The position numbers and the translations under genes were made by a program. Below, piece after piece: positions 3,336-59,665 of a stretch of 64,000 bases of DNA (the first letter of the stretch is position 1; every line of letters starts with the position of its first letter). The notes beneath the pieces were generated by a model. That model ran no database searches and was not told where the DNA came from. It worked only from the letters and a program-made list of their open reading frames with translations. The DNA is from Eubacteriales bacterium (lineage in GTDB: Bacteria > Bacillota > Clostridia > Oscillospirales > CAG-272): the NCBI GenBank assembly GCA_045602215.1, contig JAZSBE010000060.1:536-64535 (forward strand). Direction: 5' to 3'.

Positions 3336-4250
3336 ATGAAGAAGCATTACGAAGTGAAACCAAATCTGTCACATGACGAAATCACGCGCTTGATTTCCGC
3401 GGGCGAGCGCTATTTTGAGTCGCAGCTTGAGGAGATCTCAAGGTCGCTTTTGGAAAAAGCGGATCTGCATTTTCTCGGACTGACAGGACCAACCTGCTCG
3501 GGAAAAACGACGTCTGCAAATCTGCTCACCGATCTTCTGGAATCGCACGGAAAGCAGATTCACGTGATTTCGATTGACGATTTTTACTATGATAAGCCCC
3601 ATCTCTTGGAGATGACAAGAAAGAAGGGCGAGACCAAGCTGGATTACGATTCGGAGGAGACCATTGACATCTCCCTTCTGGAATCCTGTGTGGAGTCGCT
3701 CAGGGCAGGGAAGCGAACGAGGCTTCCGAAATTCAATTTTACAACGGGACTTCGCGAGGCAGGGGAGGAGATCCTTCCCTCTGCCAAGGACGTCTTTCTC
3801 TTTGAGGGGATCCAGGTTCTCTATCCCCGTGTGGATCGCATTCTGCGTAGCTCGCAGTATCAGAGTATCCACATCGCGCCCCAGTCCTCTATCGAGATCG
3901 GGGGAGAGGTCTTTGAGCCGAATGAAATCCGCTTGATGCGAAGGCTCGTCAGGGACTATCATTTCCGCAACGCCGAGCCGGAGTTTACCTTTACTATCTG
4001 GCAAAGTGTGCGGGACAACGAGGAAAAACTGATCTTTCCGAACGTGCATTTGTGTGACTACAAAATCGACTCAACTATGCCGTACGAGATCGGTATTTTG
4101 AAACCCTATCTGGAGAACATTCTGCCAAGGGTTACAAGCGATCCCGTACACGCTAAGCAGGCAAGCTCCATTTTGGCAGAGCTTGAGAACGTGCAAGCAC
4201 TCCCGTCAGATCTGATCCCTCAAAATTCACTGTACAAGGAATTTATTTAA
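3336..4250 (+). CDS. Uridine kinase/phosphoribulokinase-family nucleoside kinase
   Basis: P-loop GLTGPTCSGKTT followed by ISIDDFYYD, as in Udk-like kinases. The ATG at 3336 lies 8 nt after AAGGAGGA; the ORF track starts 6 nt earlier, at 3330. Confidence 0.7.
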   Translation: MKKHYEVKPNLSHDEITRLISAGERYFESQLEEISRSLLEKADLHFLGLTGPTCSGKTTSANLLTDLLESHGKQIHVISIDDFYYDKPHLLEMTRKKGETKLDYDSEETIDISLLESCVESLRAGKRTRLPKFNFTTGLREAGEEILPSAKDVFLFEGIQVLYPRVDRILRSSQYQSIHIAPQSSIEIGGEVFEPNEIRLMRRLVRDYHFRNAEPEFTFTIWQSVRDNEEKLIFPNVHLCDYKIDSTMPYEIGILKPYLENILPRVTSDPVHAKQASSILAELENVQALPSDLIPQNSLYKEFI

Positions 4251-4252
4251 CG

Positions 4253-5545
4253 ATGAAATTATTACTCAAAAACGCGACGTTGCTCCCCGAGTACGGCTTT
4301 GCAGATCGGCGCGTAAACGTATTGATTAAGGATAAGAAAATCTACGGAATTACAGAAGTTCTGCCGGATGATTTCGTGGCGGACGAGGTGGTAGATTGCG
4401 GCGGTAATCTGCTGATTCCCGCGTTTTACAACGCGCACTGTCACGCGGCAATGACCCTTTTCCGAGGATACGGCGAGGATCTCCCGCTCCAGCGGTGGCT
4501 TGAAGAGAAGATCTTTCCCGCAGAGGAGCATCTGACCTTCCGCAGTGTCTATCACGGAACGATGCTGGCGATCGCGGAGATGCTGAAATCGGGTATCGCG
4601 TCCTTCTCGGATATGTATATGTTTGAGGACGCGGTCGCGGAGGCGGTTCTTGCCAGCGGCATCAAGGCGAATCTCTCCAGATCTTTGGTCTCCTTCGATC
4701 CGAACGTGGATATGAGCCAGGAAAACCGTATGGTCGAGGCGATCCGCCTGGCAGAGTGGTATCACGGCATCGATGACGGCAGGATCCTCGTGGATTTCTC
4801 CCTTCACGCCGAATACACCAACATCCCCAAGGCCTGCGAATACGTCGCGGAGATTGCAAAGAGATTCAAAACGGGTATGCAGATCCACCTTTCCGAAACC
4901 GAGAAGGAGCACATGGACTGCATCGGCAGATGGGGTAAGACTCCTACGGAGTTTTTCCGAGACACGGGTGTTTTGGACGTCCCAACAACGGCGGCGCACG
5001 GCGTTTGGCTTCAGGATAGCGATCTTCCCATTCTCGCAGAAAAGAAGGTTACCATCGCGCACAACCCCGTGAGCAATCTCAAGCTCGGAAGCGGCGTGAT
5101 GCCTCTGAAAAAGCTGATGAATGCAGGGATCAACGTTGCGCTCGGAACGGATGGCGTGGCATCAAACAACCGCTTGGATGTTCTCCGTGAGCTTCAGACG
5201 GCGGCGATCCTGCACAAGGGTGTGAACCGAGATCCTGCCTGCCTCACGGCAAGAGAGGTGTTCCCCTTGGCGACGCGGAACGGCGCGATAGCGCAGAGAA
5301 GAGGGGATTGCGGAGAGATCAAGGTCGGCAATCGCGCGGATCTGGTGCTCCTCGACCGCAACACGCTACATAACGTCCCGTGCTTTGACGATTATGCAAT
5401 GATCGCCTACAGCGCAGAGCGAAGCGACGTACGAATGACCATGGTCGATGGACGCATACTTTACCGAAACGGTGAGTATACTTCCATTGATGAGGAACGG
5501 ATGCGATTTGAATGCCGCGAGACGTTTGCTCATTACTTTGAGTAA
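4253..5545 (+). CDS. mtaD: Amidohydrolase, 5-methylthioadenosine/S-adenosylhomocysteine deaminase type
   Basis: 430 aa. Metal-binding HxH (FYNAHCHAAMTLFRGYGEDLPLQRWL), later HLSET and GTDG motifs typical of MtaD/TrzA-family deaminases. Confidence 0.85.
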   Translation: MKLLLKNATLLPEYGFADRRVNVLIKDKKIYGITEVLPDDFVADEVVDCGGNLLIPAFYNAHCHAAMTLFRGYGEDLPLQRWLEEKIFPAEEHLTFRSVYHGTMLAIAEMLKSGIASFSDMYMFEDAVAEAVLASGIKANLSRSLVSFDPNVDMSQENRMVEAIRLAEWYHGIDDGRILVDFSLHAEYTNIPKACEYVAEIAKRFKTGMQIHLSETEKEHMDCIGRWGKTPTEFFRDTGVLDVPTTAAHGVWLQDSDLPILAEKKVTIAHNPVSNLKLGSGVMPLKKLMNAGINVALGTDGVASNNRLDVLRELQTAAILHKGVNRDPACLTAREVFPLATRNGAIAQRRGDCGEIKVGNRADLVLLDRNTLHNVPCFDDYAMIAYSAERSDVRMTMVDGRILYRNGEYTSIDEERMRFECRETFAHYFE

Positions 5546-9836: not shown

Positions 9837-10316
9837 ATGGCAGAGAAGAAAAAAGAAGCACAAAAGATCGTAGCGCAGAACAAAAAGGCGTGGCACGATT
9901 ATTTTGTAGAGGAAAAGTATGAGGCGGGCGTGGCGCTTTGCGGCACCGAGATCAAGAGCATCCGTCGGGGAGCAGTGAACCTCAAGGATTCCTACTGTTC
10001 CTTTGACAAGGGCGAGATGTTTGCGACCGGCGTGCATATCAGTCCTTATGAGCAGGGAAACCGCTTCAATCACGAGCCTCTCAGAGACAAAAAGCTCTTG
10101 ATGCACAAGAGAGAGATCATGAAGCTTCAGGGACTCGTGCAGCAAAAGGGATATACGCTGATCCCCTTGTCGCTTTATTTTTCGGGAAGCTTTGTGAAAA
10201 TGGAGATTGGACTTTGCAGAGGTAAAAAGCTGTACGATAAGCGAGACGCCGATGCAGAGAGAGCGGCAAACCGAACTATGGATCGGCATATGAAGGACAG
10301 CCGATACGAGGAATAA
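9837..10316 (+). CDS. smpB: SsrA-binding protein SmpB
   Basis: KIVAQNKKAWHDYFVEEKYEAGVALCGTEIKSIR.G..NLKDSY is canonical SmpB. An in-frame GTG at 9831 is an alternative start. Confidence 0.93.
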   Translation: MAEKKKEAQKIVAQNKKAWHDYFVEEKYEAGVALCGTEIKSIRRGAVNLKDSYCSFDKGEMFATGVHISPYEQGNRFNHEPLRDKKLLMHKREIMKLQGLVQQKGYTLIPLSLYFSGSFVKMEIGLCRGKKLYDKRDADAERAANRTMDRHMKDSRYEE

Positions 10317-10356: not shown

Positions 10357-10385
10357 TTGACAAAGAAGAGAAAATCGGATATAAT
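10357..10385 (+). promoter_or_regulatory. Candidate sigma-A promoter of ssrA
   Basis: TTGACA (10357-10362), 17-nt spacer, TATAAT (10380-10385), about 70 nt upstream of the mature tmRNA 5' end. Confidence 0.6.
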
Positions 10386-10456: not shown

Positions 10457-10848
10457 GGGGGTGCAATGGTTTCGACGGGGATTCTGAGGCAAGATAAGCG
10501 TGGCGAGCCGGGTAATCTCGAAAACTGCCTAAACTTAAAAAATAAACGACAACAATTACGTTGCTATGGCTGCCTAAGTTTTGCGCTTCGGCGTAAAACT
10601 TGGCGGTGCCGTGACCTGCGGGTCACCCGTTCCTCCGCGGAGGACTGCGACTGCGGACTGAACGTCATCTGAGCAGTGAACTTGCATCGGGGTTTCGCCC
10701 TTGAACCGATCAAGCACAAAAGGGCTACCGAGCGGTGGAGTGTGTCTGTTCACGCCTCCAATCGGGAAATCAAAATAACAGACTGTCCACGAAGAAAGTT
10801 TTGTCAAGGGGTTTTCGGACATGGGTTCGATTCCCATCATCTCCACCA
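10457..10848 (+). ncRNA. ssrA: tmRNA (transfer-messenger RNA)
   Basis: - 5' GGGGGTGCAATGGTTTCGACGGGG resembles the E. coli GGGGCUGAUUCUGGAUUCGACGGG.
- 5' GGGGGTG pairs with 3' CATCTCC before ACCA, including the G3:U pair.
- T-arm ATGGG-TTCGATT-CCCAT.
- The tag frame ends ..AAC GAC AAC AAT TAC GTT GCT ATG GCT GCC TAA (..NDNNYVAMAA*, stop at 10575-10577).
- It sits directly after smpB. Confidence 0.9.
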
Positions 10849-10895
10849 AAAGAGAATGGCTGGCACATCGTGCCAGCCATTCTCTTTTGGTGGAG
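10841..10895 (+). terminator. ssrA terminator, a 26-bp perfect inverted repeat that includes the tmRNA 3' end
   Basis: CTCCACCAAAAGAGAATGGCTGGCAC (10841-10866), loop ATC, GTGCCAGCCATTCTCTTTTGGTGGAG (10870-10895). A TTTT run lies inside the right arm. Confidence 0.7.
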
Positions 10896-10897
10896 CT

Positions 10898-11014
10898 AAT
10901 TCGCTACGCGAATTGAACCCCGCAAATTCGCAGAATTTGCCGAGGAACGCGCGTGATGAAGGGGGCTTAAGGTTTGATAAAATTAAGGCGCGCGTTTGGG
11001 TTCAGATTCCCATC
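10898..11014 (+). repeat. Structured repeat unit U1 (H0 + H1 + S2 + pseudo ssrA T-arm)
   Basis: - H0: aattcgc-tac-gcgaatt, 10898-10914.
- H1: gcaaattc-gca-gaatttgc, 10922-10940.
- S2: acgcgcg 10947-53 paired with cgcgcgt 10989-95, 35-nt loop.
- 5 nt, then tgggttcagattcccatc at 10997-11014. The genuine ssrA T-arm is tgggttcgattcccatc at 10822-10838. Confidence 0.65.
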
Positions 11015-11135
11015 CTGCGCAGATCGAACCCCGCGAATTTCAAAGCAACGCTTTGAAATTACGCCAGTGCGTGCGCTTAAATAGAAGCGAAAAAATTTGC
11101 AAAACAGGAGCGCACGCGTGGTTTCAGATTCCCCA
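11015..11135 (+). repeat. Structured repeat unit U2 (H1 + S2 + degenerate pseudo T-arm)
   Basis: - H1: aatttcaaagc-aac-gctttgaaatt, 11036-11060.
- S2: gcgtgcgc 11069-76 paired with gcgcacgc 11110-17, 33-nt loop.
- 5 nt, then ttcagattcccca at 11123-11135.
- It shares the gaaccccgcRaatt block with U1. Confidence 0.6.
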
Positions 11136-11136
11136 T

Positions 11137-11868
11137 TTATTGCTTTTTCATCTGTCTGAGGAACAGGAGCACCGCGATCGCAAGGGCGACGACGGCATAT
11201 CCGAGTACCCAGAAGAGGTGCGGGAATATTTCTCCGAAATTTCCTGAGAGCACTGCGCGCTCCAGCTCTACCGCGTGTACGAAGGGAAGGGCGTAGGCGA
11301 TCTTCTTGAACGTGCCGCCCACCAGCTCCAGATCAAACCACGTGCCCGACAGCCACGCCGAGAGGTTTGTCAGCAGCGCGCCGCAGATTCCTCCGACCTG
11401 CTTGTCATTTAAGATGCTTCCAAAGAGCAATCCAAGCGCGATGAAGAGAACCGAGATGGGAATGATAAAGAGAACTGCCAGCAGAACGTTGACCGTGATC
11501 TCAAGCCCGAGAATGAATGCCACCAGATAGCAAATGATACTCTGCGCCACCGCAAAGGGAACGATCGGCAGAGTGTAGCCAAGGATAAAATCGATCGGGC
11601 GGAGAGGCGTGGTGTAGAGTCTTTGAAGCAGCGAGCTGCCTCTGTCCTTTGAGATCAGGAATGCGGAAAAGAGAGTCATAAAGGAGAGCCCGAAGACCGT
11701 GATGCCGGGAGTCAGGTGCGCGATCTCAAAGAGGGGAACCGGCACGTTTGCCTGAATGGCGCTCAAAAGGAAAATCAAAACGAGAGGGAATCCAAGACCA
11801 AAGCATACCGTTAAGGGATCGCGAAGGATTTCCTTGGTGTTTCTGTTTGCAAACGTAAGCATTTTCAT
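11137..11868 (-). CDS. ABC-2 type transporter permease
   Basis: 243 aa with about 6 TM segments. Its start overlaps the stop of the upstream ABC ATPase gene. Confidence 0.85.
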   Translation of the reverse strand: MKMLTFANRNTKEILRDPLTVCFGLGFPLVLIFLLSAIQANVPVPLFEIAHLTPGITVFGLSFMTLFSAFLISKDRGSSLLQRLYTTPLRPIDFILGYTLPIVPFAVAQSIICYLVAFILGLEITVNVLLAVLFIIPISVLFIALGLLFGSILNDKQVGGICGALLTNLSAWLSGTWFDLELVGGTFKKIAYALPFVHAVELERAVLSGNFGEIFPHLFWVLGYAVVALAIAVLLFLRQMKKQ

Positions 11869-58872: not shown

Positions 58873-58902
58873 AAAAGAAGATGCGTTTGCATCTTCTTTT
58901 TT
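58871..58902. terminator. Bidirectional terminator
   Basis: aaaaaagaagatgc / gcatcttctttttt hairpin between convergent genes. Confidence 0.6.
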
Positions 58903-58904
58903 CG

Positions 58905-59099
58905 TTATATTTGCTTTTGTACGCTCTTATATTCGTCATAAAAACGATAGTATGGGCAAGTTCTCGTGCTGCCGGATAAAAAGCGAACCATTTCGTCTTC
59001 GTCCAGATTCACACTGCACTCGTAGTCCTCGTACTCTTCGTTATAATCATAGAATACGCAGGTCTCACACGTTCCTGCTTGCTTTTTTTCGATTGTCAT
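58905..59099 (-). CDS. Small acidic 4-Cys protein, conserved hypothetical
   Basis: 64 aa. CETC...x13...C...x19...C, rich in D, E and Y. Strong RBS AAGGAGG 5 nt upstream of the ATG. Confidence 0.6.
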   Translation of the reverse strand: MTIEKKQAGTCETCVFYDYNEEYEDYECSVNLDEDEMVRFLSGSTRTCPYYRFYDEYKSVQKQI

Positions 59100-59203
59100 C
59101 GCGCACCTCCTTGAGGGGATATCTCATTATACACGATTCTGACCCAAAAGTAAAGAAGATGTCGAAATTTTTGACAACTTTTTTGTTTTTTCTGAAAAAA
59201 CTC

Positions 59204-59232
59204 TTGCAATTTCAAAAAATGTATGCTATAAT
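59204..59232 (+). promoter_or_regulatory. Candidate sigma-A promoter of tRNA-Val
   Basis: TTGCAA (59204-09), 17-nt spacer, TATAAT (59227-32), 13 nt before the tRNA 5' end. Confidence 0.55.
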
Positions 59233-59245
59233 ATCCCCGTTGCAT

Positions 59246-59302
<57 letters not shown>

Positions 59303-59322
<20 letters not shown>

Positions 59323-59404
59323 AAAAAAGAATCCCAACACGCTGTGTTGGGATTCTTTTTTTGCTGAAAATCATCGAAACGATGGTCTCCGCAAATCTCG
59401 CAAA
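59303..59404 (+). repeat. Direct repeat copy 1 (tRNA-Val T-loop-to-CCA + terminator + 42 nt)
   Basis: 102 nt. It recurs at 59479-59581. It includes the tRNA terminator hairpin gaatcccaacac-gct-gtgttgggattc. Confidence 0.9.
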
Positions 59405-59478
59405 GCGAGATTATGCCAAGGCGCGCGATGAGATGAAACGTAGGTTAAGCACAGAATCAAAACGCGCGCATAAGTTCA
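59405..59478 (+). repeat. 74-nt junction segment, homologous to ssrA-downstream units U1/U2
   Basis: It completes hairpin H1 (aatctcgc-aaa-gcgagatt, 59394-59412). S2 is gcgcgcg 59421-27 paired with cgcgcgc 59463-69, with a 35-nt loop. Then 5 nt, then ttca. Confidence 0.65.
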
Positions 59479-59581
59479 GAGTCTCCCTGTTTCCACCAAA
59501 AAAAGAATCCCAACACAGCGTGTTGGGATTCTTTTTTTTGCTGAAAATCATCGAAACGATGGTCTCCGCAAATCTCGCAAA
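59479..59581 (+). repeat. Direct repeat copy 2 (pseudo 3' end of tRNA-Val + terminator copy + 42 nt)
   Basis: 103 nt, identical to copy 1 except that the hairpin loop is agc instead of gct and there is one extra T in the T-run. Confidence 0.9.
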
Positions 59582-59595
59582 ACCGTAGTAATGTG

Positions 59596-59624
59596 TTGAT
59601 TTTTTCCTTTGTGTGTGATATAAT
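59596..59624 (+). promoter_or_regulatory. Candidate sigma-A promoter of the nitroreductase gene
   Basis: TTGATT (59596-601), 17-nt spacer, TATAAT (59619-24). Confidence 0.5.
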
Positions 59625-59665
59625 AACCATATAAATGACAAAAAGCCGCAAAAAGGAGAGTAAAA

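Follow-up and report, generated by a model that had tools for sequence, protein, structure and literature searches.

In integrons, cassettes lie beside intI and attI, and their attC sites carry R''/R' boxes of the form RYYYAAC/GTTRRRY and a conserved extrahelical base. Integration into tRNA-gene DNA (tDNA) has its own signature, which part of one account gives as a regenerated target together with a displaced fragment (PMC4383910). Cis-mobilizable elements (CIMEs), as characterized in an excerpt of a second account, are decayed integrative and conjugative or integrative and mobilizable elements (ICEs or IMEs) that keep both attachment sites, attL and attR, and have lost the genes for integration and transfer (PMC5704250). 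Here, in a window of 64,000 nucleotides (the whole stretch of DNA analysed) from an Eubacteriales bacterium, we examine two structured units, U1 and U2, that lie between ssrA, the gene for transfer-messenger RNA (tmRNA), and a convergent ABC permease gene. They belong to a family of ~100-nt, gene-less three-stem modules that is apparently previously undescribed, no description of such modules having been found in the literature. We propose, with a probability of about 0.58, that U1 and U2 are decayed members of miniature integrative modules without open reading frames (ORFs), which insert at the T-loop of tRNA and tmRNA genes with tyrosine integrases acting in trans.

Two folded units behind ssrA

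Each unit comprises a short hairpin (H1), a GC-rich stem with a long loop (S2) and a closing stem (P1), placed as follows.

10910-11011, + strand: U1, redrawn borders
10910-10921, + strand: U1 P1 5' strand GAATTGAACCCC, an inverted T-arm copy; inverted repeat with the true T-arm, pairing with 10998-11009 in minimum-free-energy (MFE) folds
10922-10929 with 10933-10940, + strand: U1 H1 GCAAATTC/GAATTTGC; inverted repeat
10946-10953 with 10989-10996, + strand: U1 S2 AACGCGCG/CGCGCGTT, a GC stem with a 35-nt A/T-rich loop; inverted repeat, family covariation
10998-11014, + strand: U1 P1 3' strand and junction, GGGTTC, an extra A (11004) and GATTCCCATC
11022-11133, + strand: U2, redrawn borders
11022-11032, + strand: U2 P1 5' strand GATCGAACCCC; inverted repeat with the true T-arm, MFE fold
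11036-11046 with 11050-11060, + strand: U2 H1 AATTTCAAAGC/GCTTTGAAATT, in a hairpin feature spanning 11033-11064; inverted repeat
11069-11077 with 11109-11117, + strand: U2 S2 GCGTGCGCT/AGCGCACGC, stem and loop; inverted repeat
11120-11136, + strand: U2 P1 3' strand and junction, GGTTTC, an extra A (11126) and GATTCCCCAT, abutting the permease stop codon

An inverted copy of the T-arm (GAATYGAACCCC) opens each unit and finds its partner in the unit's own 3' pseudo T-arm, GGGTTC-A-GATTC, so that each unit forms a three-way junction of P1, H1 and S2. Both adopt this junction as RNA and as single-stranded DNA (ssDNA), on either strand. For the 241-nt stretch that contains them, the folding z-score is -4.5 (+ strand) or -2.7 (- strand), and none of 200 dinucleotide shuffles, the control that an earlier, sequence-only reading had called for, folds as well; taken singly, U1 and U2 reach z = -2.4 and -4.7 as RNA, and -3.5 and -4.9 as ssDNA. 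The shuffles, together with the family described below, rule out a chance origin of the hairpins.

That sequence-only reading had listed the hairpins and a 5-nt tail, every one of which is recovered from the sequence and by an inverted-repeat search: in both units S2 is followed, after 5 nt, by TTCAGATTCCC (11001-11011 in U1, 11123-11133 in U2). Its description of two degenerate tandem units also stands. Alignment of U1 with U2 is restricted to their ends (25 nt at 80% and 24 nt at 83% identity), and Tandem Repeats Finder calls no tandem repeat in the region, which marks the units as degenerate, their interiors too diverged. The pseudo T-arm said to end each unit proves to be a piece of the ssrA 3' end that has been displaced or duplicated, and the U1 tail is, as had been proposed, the ssrA T-arm plus one nucleotide (TGGGTTCAGATTCCCATC at 10997-11014 equals TGGGTTCGATTCCCATC with an A at 11004). 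The borders first drawn (10898-11014 and 11015-11135) were out of phase with the structure, which the redrawn ones fit better; H1, S2 and the tail had been placed correctly, but the 5' inverted T-arm copies (GAATTGAACCCC, GATCGAACCCC) and the stem that they close had been overlooked. The surrounding features of the ssrA locus are these.

10457-10848, + strand: ssrA, tag DNNYVAMAA (ARAGORN; Rfam RF00023, 161.8 bits)
10823-10835, + strand: ssrA T-arm core GGGTTCGATTCCC; the longer T-arm TGGGTTCGATTCCCATC lies at 10822-10838
10836-10900: extended ssrA terminator palindrome, 31-nt arms that are 94% complementary, 3-nt loop
10898-10914: small hairpin AATTCGC-TAC-GCGAATT between the terminator and U1, read from the sequence and present in the ssDNA fold
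9837-10316: SmpB (Pfam PF01668), followed by ssrA
10357-10385, + strand: ssrA promoter of the sigma-70 type, TTGACA, 17 nt, TATAAT, with 12 of 12 consensus positions matching
11137-11868, - strand: convergent ABC-2 permease (Pfam PF01061), its 3' end touching U2

The ssrA terminator has a longer stem than was first seen: it takes in the last eight tmRNA bases, CTCCACCA, and their inverted copy TGGTGGAG at 10888-10895, and the whole palindrome folds as ssDNA with z = -13. No terminator separates U1 from U2, and each retains just 10 nt of the displaced 3' end, GATTCCCATC in U1 being the truncated displaced end of ssrA. Having lost its inner terminator and kept little of either displaced 3' end, the array in the window is probably inert. 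Compared with a sister strain (L059), the window is short of ~230 nt between U2 and the permease, a 59-aa ORF included; with this small ORF lost, U2 directly adjoins the stop codon of the permease. In L059 (5760-5939) and in a neighbouring species (L062, 5757-5945), the place between units and permease is taken by an ORF of 59-62 aa. U1 and U2 are best seen as what compaction has left of an array whose turnover within the species continues.

A family with conserved structure and free sequence

The relatives of U1 and U2 were sought with the pattern GAACCCCGC-N70-95-TTCAGATTCCC in 185,579 species genomes. Thirty-three loci matched, against an estimated ~26 expected by chance, and 10 are true relatives, all in metagenome-assembled genomes (MAGs) of Clostridia/Oscillospiraceae. 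A covariance model built from 18 units (R1) matched U1 with 67.8 bits, U2 with 84.4 bits and, beyond them, further members in tandem arrays, strain contigs and one prophage flank. The family thus comprises more than 25 members from at least 12 genomes (Oscillospiraceae and other Clostridia MAGs) at five gene types, found by pattern and covariance searches of the kind suggested at the outset; among them is a third member in the window, behind tRNA-Val. A pattern scan of JGI metagenomes gave only four loci, two of them redundant with the MAGs. Rfam, run on the region at E values up to 10 and on 11 loci at the gathering score, returned only tmRNA, tRNA and T-arm-driven noise, and neither the units nor the complete modules contain an ORF.

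Folded in isolation, each of the 22 units tested gives this three-way junction, at z-scores between -1.9 and -8.7. Across 27 members, compensatory changes occur at six of eight S2 pairs and three of four modelled base pairs of H1; paired alignment cells amount to 92-95%, compared with 81-84% in shuffles and 11-51% in slid controls, in alignments that were themselves model-fitted to the structure. The idea of selection on structure is upheld by this record, the comparison of U1 with U2 on which it was first based being weak evidence alone. Sequence is conserved only in the two strands of P1 and in the GC at the start of H1. The S2 loop holds its length (31-35 nt) and is free in sequence, as are the other loops, and no junction nucleotide is conserved across members. 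P1 has a single compensatory pair, C-G to U-A, in the tRNA-Val units, whose ends follow the local T-arm and so supply this sole change. An extra A is common to all collected members bar one weak member, which has an extra G. The minus strand folds equally well or better in 15 of the 22 units, and G-U counts are balanced between strands, which counts against a strand-specific RNA and would fit a role at the DNA level, without being proof of it.

The third member of the window is laid out as follows.

59246-59322, + strand: tRNA-Val(CAC), the anchor gene (ARAGORN)
59323-59362: tRNA-Val terminator, between the tRNA and the third unit
59377-59485, + strand: third, diverged unit (R1 31.6 bits, E = 6e-5)
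59474-59498, + strand: GTTC, extra A (59478) and GAGTCTCCCTGTTTCCACCA, which repeats the tRNA-Val 3' end exactly
59499-59583, + strand: second copy of the terminator, then a second unit truncated inside H1

Both tRNA-type genes of the window, ssrA and tRNA-Val, therefore carry family members. The two tRNA-Val terminators differ solely in an inverted loop, GCT versus AGC ('flip-flop'). In sister strains (L064-L067), the P1 5' strand at tRNA-Val reads GAACTC and its partner GAGTTC, each strain has its own terminator after tRNA-Val and its own unit variant, and, relative to window positions 58873-59665, the segment holding an ORF with DUF6472, tRNA-Val and the module is inverted between a helix-turn-helix (HTH) gene and a nitroreductase gene. 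In L067, the 3' flank of the unit (GAATCATC...) is unlike tRNA-Val.

Modules repeat the 3' end of the gene they follow

Every member with a readable upstream flank lies ~60 nt downstream of a tRNA or tmRNA gene, on the same strand, the anchors being tRNA-Gly(CCC), tRNA-Glu(CTC), tRNA-Glu(TTC), tRNA-Val(CAC) and tmRNA. The usual full order is: the gene; its terminator hairpin; ~15 nt resembling the acceptor strand in inverted, degenerate form; GAATC(N)GAACCCC; H1; S2; GGGTTC; the extra A; the gene's own 3' end, from the T-loop GA to CCA; and a second, different terminator. What follows TTC-A is the 3' end of the local gene, GTCATCTGCTCCA at tRNA-Gly, GGATGGGTCACCA at tRNA-Glu (L007), GAGTCTCCCTGTTTCCACCA at tRNA-Val and ATCATCTCCACCA at tmRNA. 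This repeat is 20-25 nt long after complete units (L019, L020, L031, L007, L050 and tRNA-Val of the window) and 10 nt in U1 and U2. Such a repeated gene 3' end past the unit matches the signature of tDNA integration as described in part of PMC4383910.

No member has cargo between gene and unit. In L020 (2745-4140), an insert of ~1.4 kb lies between two units and holds a 184-aa membrane-protein ORF and an ABC-ATPase fragment; we considered it as module cargo and rejected this, as the insert splits a terminator loop that is intact in L035. The tRNA-Glu(CTC) upstream of the L007 module (4554-4628) has an unusual T-loop, GGGTACGATCCCC, and the displaced copy has the usual GATTCCC; the odd T-loop could be a MAG error or a variant 3' end supplied by the module. 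Two further sequence blocks lie near displaced 3' ends. In L007 (~4810-4960), L019 and L031, another conserved element with several hairpins stands beyond the displaced tRNA 3' end and its terminator; it takes the form TATCCAAG-loop-CTTGG, with repeated (T)ATCAT(C/T) blocks between variable hairpins and GACTTGATGA at its end. The block TCAAATT(C/T)GGT(C/T)(A/G)CACTTGCCAATAAGA, with a hairpin, stands 20-50 nt past the displaced ssrA 3' end in L043 and L045, and before the second terminator in L027; shared by three genomes, it perhaps derives from the original flank of ssrA or forms one more part of the module.

Filled and empty sites

A comparison of prophage-bearing ssrA loci gives the order of events. 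In L051 and L054 the ssrA end (the attR core) directly abuts the host flank TATGAAGAACATAA.ATAGATATTCTTCG. L050 shares this flank, TATGAAGAACATAA, behind ~200 extra nt that comprise a terminator, TGGTGGAA, a unit (31 bits) and GGTTC-A-GATTCCCATCATCTCCACCA; the inserted segment also holds a duplicated 20-nt block. The filled and empty sites together indicate that the 3' end behind the unit is the original one, and that the module was inserted upstream of it. The prophages belong to an IMG/VR family with a 379-aa tyrosine integrase (PF00589 and PF14659), whose phage attachment site (attP) reads ...GGGCGTTTGTGT-A-GATTCCCATCACTTCCACCA-ATATCC... in L052, L053 and L055, the A being preceded by GTGT. 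In three lineages of this family an A stands right before the T-loop GA of the core, as in the units (junction A|GATTCC). At the level of sequence comparison, these loci show module insertion at the T-loop to regenerate the gene 3' end and displace the old one.

The region behind ssrA is also polymorphic. We compared contigs with SmpB identical or 96% identical to that of the window; for the window's exact permease, ATPase, RuvB and nitroreductase proteins no record was found, and close homologues served instead. In this comparison of related strains, which had been suggested at the outset, terminators, units and unit order all vary. Behind ssrA, terminator and units alike differ from those of the window in L040 and L027; L043 has a third terminator and a single hybrid unit that joins the H1 of unit b to the junction and S2 of unit a; the order a,b of the window is b,a with a partial third unit in L059-61; and L062-63, from a neighbouring species, have only a truncated unit. 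In L045, with SmpB at 94% identity, an IS3-family transposase (rve domains) lies between ssrA and the first unit (3637-4764), and its tmRNA carries the tag DNDYVAMAA and a TTCGACT T-loop.

In L038, L039, L041, L047 and L048, strains whose SmpB is identical to that of the window, a defence island of more than 8 kb, encoding Kiwa (KwaA, KwaB), DUF6809, an S8 peptidase and an ABC/AAA_21 ATPase, directly follows the ssrA CCA and separates ssrA from the old block of CTCCACCA, terminator and units. Its right junction, ...CTGCTCCACCA, precedes a terminator and units of the window type, and its right end lies ~290 nt upstream of the units in L059. Because the island crosses over at CTCCACCA, the extreme 3' end of ssrA, unlike the units, the units pre-date it. 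The early suggestion that the units reflect integration at ssrA is thus right as to the link with integration but too narrow in its confinement to ssrA, given the units at tRNA-Gly, tRNA-Glu and tRNA-Val genes; and the folded architecture, held at first to be something apart from integration, belongs to the inserted module itself.

A model of miniature integrative modules

We propose that a complete module of ~180-200 bp would consist of three parts: a replacement gene 3' end from the T-loop GA, with its terminator hairpin; a degenerate inverted copy of the gene 3' end, in which the T-arm portion GAATC(N)GAACCCC is conserved; and H1, the GC-clamped S2 with its A/T-rich loop of 31-35 nt, and GGGTTC with the extra A. 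Insertion would rebuild the gene and push the old 3' end and terminator downstream, creating the pseudo T-arm that closes each unit, and repeated insertion with unequal recombination between the conserved ends would build and reshuffle tandem arrays. The process may be a conservative site-specific recombination, crossing over within the shared GATTCCC...CCA block, on the 3' side of the extra A, and catalysed by a tyrosine integrase in trans, for example from prophages that use the same site, as in mobilization of the CIME type. The inverted T-arm copies could serve as core-type sites of the recombinase, or the folded stem could mimic the double-stranded T-arm target. Alternatively, no minicircle need form, and the module might hitch-hike by accretion with a prophage or island through an outer att site and then be left behind.

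Several observations weigh against this model of integrase-driven insertion. No recombinase is tied to the modules. Excised forms, autonomous partners and cargo-bearing relatives were absent from the data searched; two pattern scans of viral contigs gave no match, and the single match of a third was the chromosomal flank of a prophage. A circle of ~190 bp is very small for integrase-mediated recombination, and nothing in ordinary integrase arm sites calls for hairpins of free sequence at fixed position; in the one phage family examined, the P arm has no H1/S2 architecture. Only one clean pair of filled and empty sites is available, and the tRNA-Val site is filled in all strains examined. The invariance of the P1 blocks is partly built in, as the search pattern fixed GAACCCCGC and TTCAGATTCCC. 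Finally, the base facing the extra A is A, G, T or none, depending on the member, which leaves that nucleotide with no uniform structural role. The module itself, at ~190 bp and without an ORF, encodes no integrase; the only one seen is that of the neighbouring prophage.

Alternative explanations

Decay of larger elements is an unlikely source of the units, although several observations fit it. The units would then be leftovers of the attR side (P arm) of large islands or prophages, with no independent existence and with the hairpins as fossil terminators or protein-binding palindromes. The ssrA gene is an active integration hotspot here, with a Kiwa island in sister strains and an IS3-family transposase in another; a prophage attR adjoins the unit in L050; the core-proximal GGGCGTTTGTGTA-GATTCCC of the phage attP resembles GCGCGTTTGGGTTCA-GATTCCC of U1; and both ssrA units of the window are truncated. 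Yet one minimal architecture and size, without cargo between gene and unit, recurs in more than 25 copies from at least 12 genomes and five gene types, and independent deletions would not repeatedly end at identical borders. H1 and S2 have also kept their pairing through many compensatory changes, and the Kiwa island crosses over elsewhere (CTCCACCA), upstream of units that were already there.

A reading that we regard as similarly doubtful takes the units, by analogy with attC and with the attP of CTX phage, for folded single-strand recombination sites anchored on tRNA and tmRNA genes, in which the stem of inverted T-arm copy and pseudo T-arm would mimic the double-stranded T-arm target and be the substrate of strand exchange by a tyrosine recombinase. 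No link of the modules to intI or Xer turned up, in work that included no search aimed at intI.

Function as a structured RNA, either a 3' trailer reached by read-through from the tRNA or tmRNA gene, which might for instance control processing through T-arm pairing, or a stabilizing 3' untranslated region of the convergent gene, appears improbable. Stem covariation is strong, the 5' strand can pair with the true upstream T-arm or with the downstream pseudo T-arm, a possible switch, and U2 of the window abuts the stop codon of the convergent permease. Complete modules, however, sit between two terminators without a promoter of their own; the minus strand folds as well or better, with no G-U strand bias; junction nucleotides are not conserved and loops are free in sequence; copy number, order and presence vary among strains with identical SmpB, unlike a housekeeping RNA; and Rfam holds no match. 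Among specific RNA or transcriptional roles, a ribozyme with a hammerhead-like three-way junction was dropped for want of conserved junction nucleotides, a tRNA-like minihelix fails for lack of a 5' acceptor strand ahead of the pseudo T-arm, and a promoter in the S2 loop (TTGACA, 16 nt, CAGAAT) occurs only in L027 unit B, most members having nothing similar.

We give very little credence to a transposase-driven element of the kind of miniature inverted-repeat transposable elements (MITEs) or repetitive extragenic palindromes (REPs) that prefers tRNA 3' flanks. The units are small, structured, ORF-less and present in several copies per genome, and their terminal inverted repeats (GGAATCNGAACCCC, GGGGTTCAGATTCC) of 12-14 bp are perfect in L008, L022 and L031. 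Against this, the repeat ends have no target-site duplication, no collected copy lies away from a tRNA or tmRNA gene, the right repeat continues into a copy of the local gene 3' end, the repeats track the local T-arm (GAACTC/GAGTTC at tRNA-Val), and the L050 insert brings a terminator and a duplicated 20-nt block besides.

Equally remote is a non-mobile origin in situ, in which template switching at the terminator palindrome would have lengthened the hairpin to include the tRNA 3' end, with local duplication afterwards: palindrome-mediated inversions clearly occur at tRNA-Val, where the terminators differ just by the inverted loop (GCT versus AGC), the whole segment is inverted between strains and the array resembles a 1.4-copy tandem duplication, but homology links the H1-junction-S2 interiors of units at unrelated genes and in unrelated genomes (Val and tmRNA units both have GCCAAG followed by a GCGCG stem), the extra A is common to all but that one weak member, and terminators beside the same gene are wholly different between strains. 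A phage origin was rejected, a blastn search of 50,697 phage records with the region having given only short chance matches.

Significance

If confirmed, the modules would be among the smallest integrative elements known (~190 bp, gene-less) and would constitute a MITE-like, non-autonomous tier of site-specific integration at tRNA and tmRNA genes, one that island finders miss because they are tuned to integrases and larger sizes. Since modules bring their own terminator, they would account for tRNA terminators and 3' flanks that in these gut Clostridia can differ wholly between strains with identical neighbouring proteins. A module also marks the true ancestral 3' end of its gene, an aid in mapping islands such as the Kiwa island at ssrA in sister strains. 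With its free sequence and fixed geometry, the three-way junction offers a compact candidate site for structure-dependent recombination. Were the folded-site reading true, it would define a new class of structure-specified mobile DNA, with a reshufflable array of structured 'cassettes' at each tRNA gene, and a new explanation for the fast turnover of tRNA 3' flanks and terminators in these bacteria.

Comparison with known systems

Bacterial interspersed mosaic elements (BIMEs), REPs and MITEs are, like the modules, small, palindromic, ORF-less and multi-copy, often between convergent genes, and the terminal inverted repeats of MITEs have a counterpart in GAATC(N)GAACCCC and GGGGTTCAGATTC. The modules differ in their strict association with tRNA and tmRNA 3' ends, in having no target-site duplications and in ends that copy the local gene.

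With integron attC sites and the ssDNA attP of CTX phage, the modules share two short inverted boxes ~100 nt apart around an interior of free sequence and conserved structure, a crossover that, in the modules, would lie inside the box stem, and a folded stem that reproduces the double-stranded target (here T-arm DNA); as in attC arrays, the sites lie beside an anchor and are reshuffled. The module boxes, GAATCNGAAC and GTTCAGATTC, do not fit RYYYAAC/GTTRRRY, there are no ORF cassettes and the extrahelical base is inconsistent, and the use of single-stranded DNA by the modules is, by analogy, a candidate mechanism only.

Like a CIME, the module has att-like flanking repeats and no recombinase, in keeping with the retention of attL and attR by which an excerpt of PMC5704250 defines them. 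It occurs in tandem with other elements at tRNA 3' ends, and in L050 it adjoins a prophage attR, the one observation that bears on descent from an ICE or IME or on mobilization by accretion. Unlike a CIME, it represents a uniform minimal family without traces of decayed genes and with selection on internal structure.

The islands and prophages placed in tDNA by tyrosine integrases (Islander-type) resemble the module in insertion into the 3' part of a gene, the replacement 3' end and the displaced fragment at the far end (PMC4383910). Tandem accumulation at one gene is a further point in common, and the A|GATTCC junction of the units is that of the prophage-family attP. What sets the module apart from them is its size of ~190 bp without an integrase or any gene, and a non-core portion that forms a conserved three-way junction closed by the inverted target T-arm, in one architecture at five genes.

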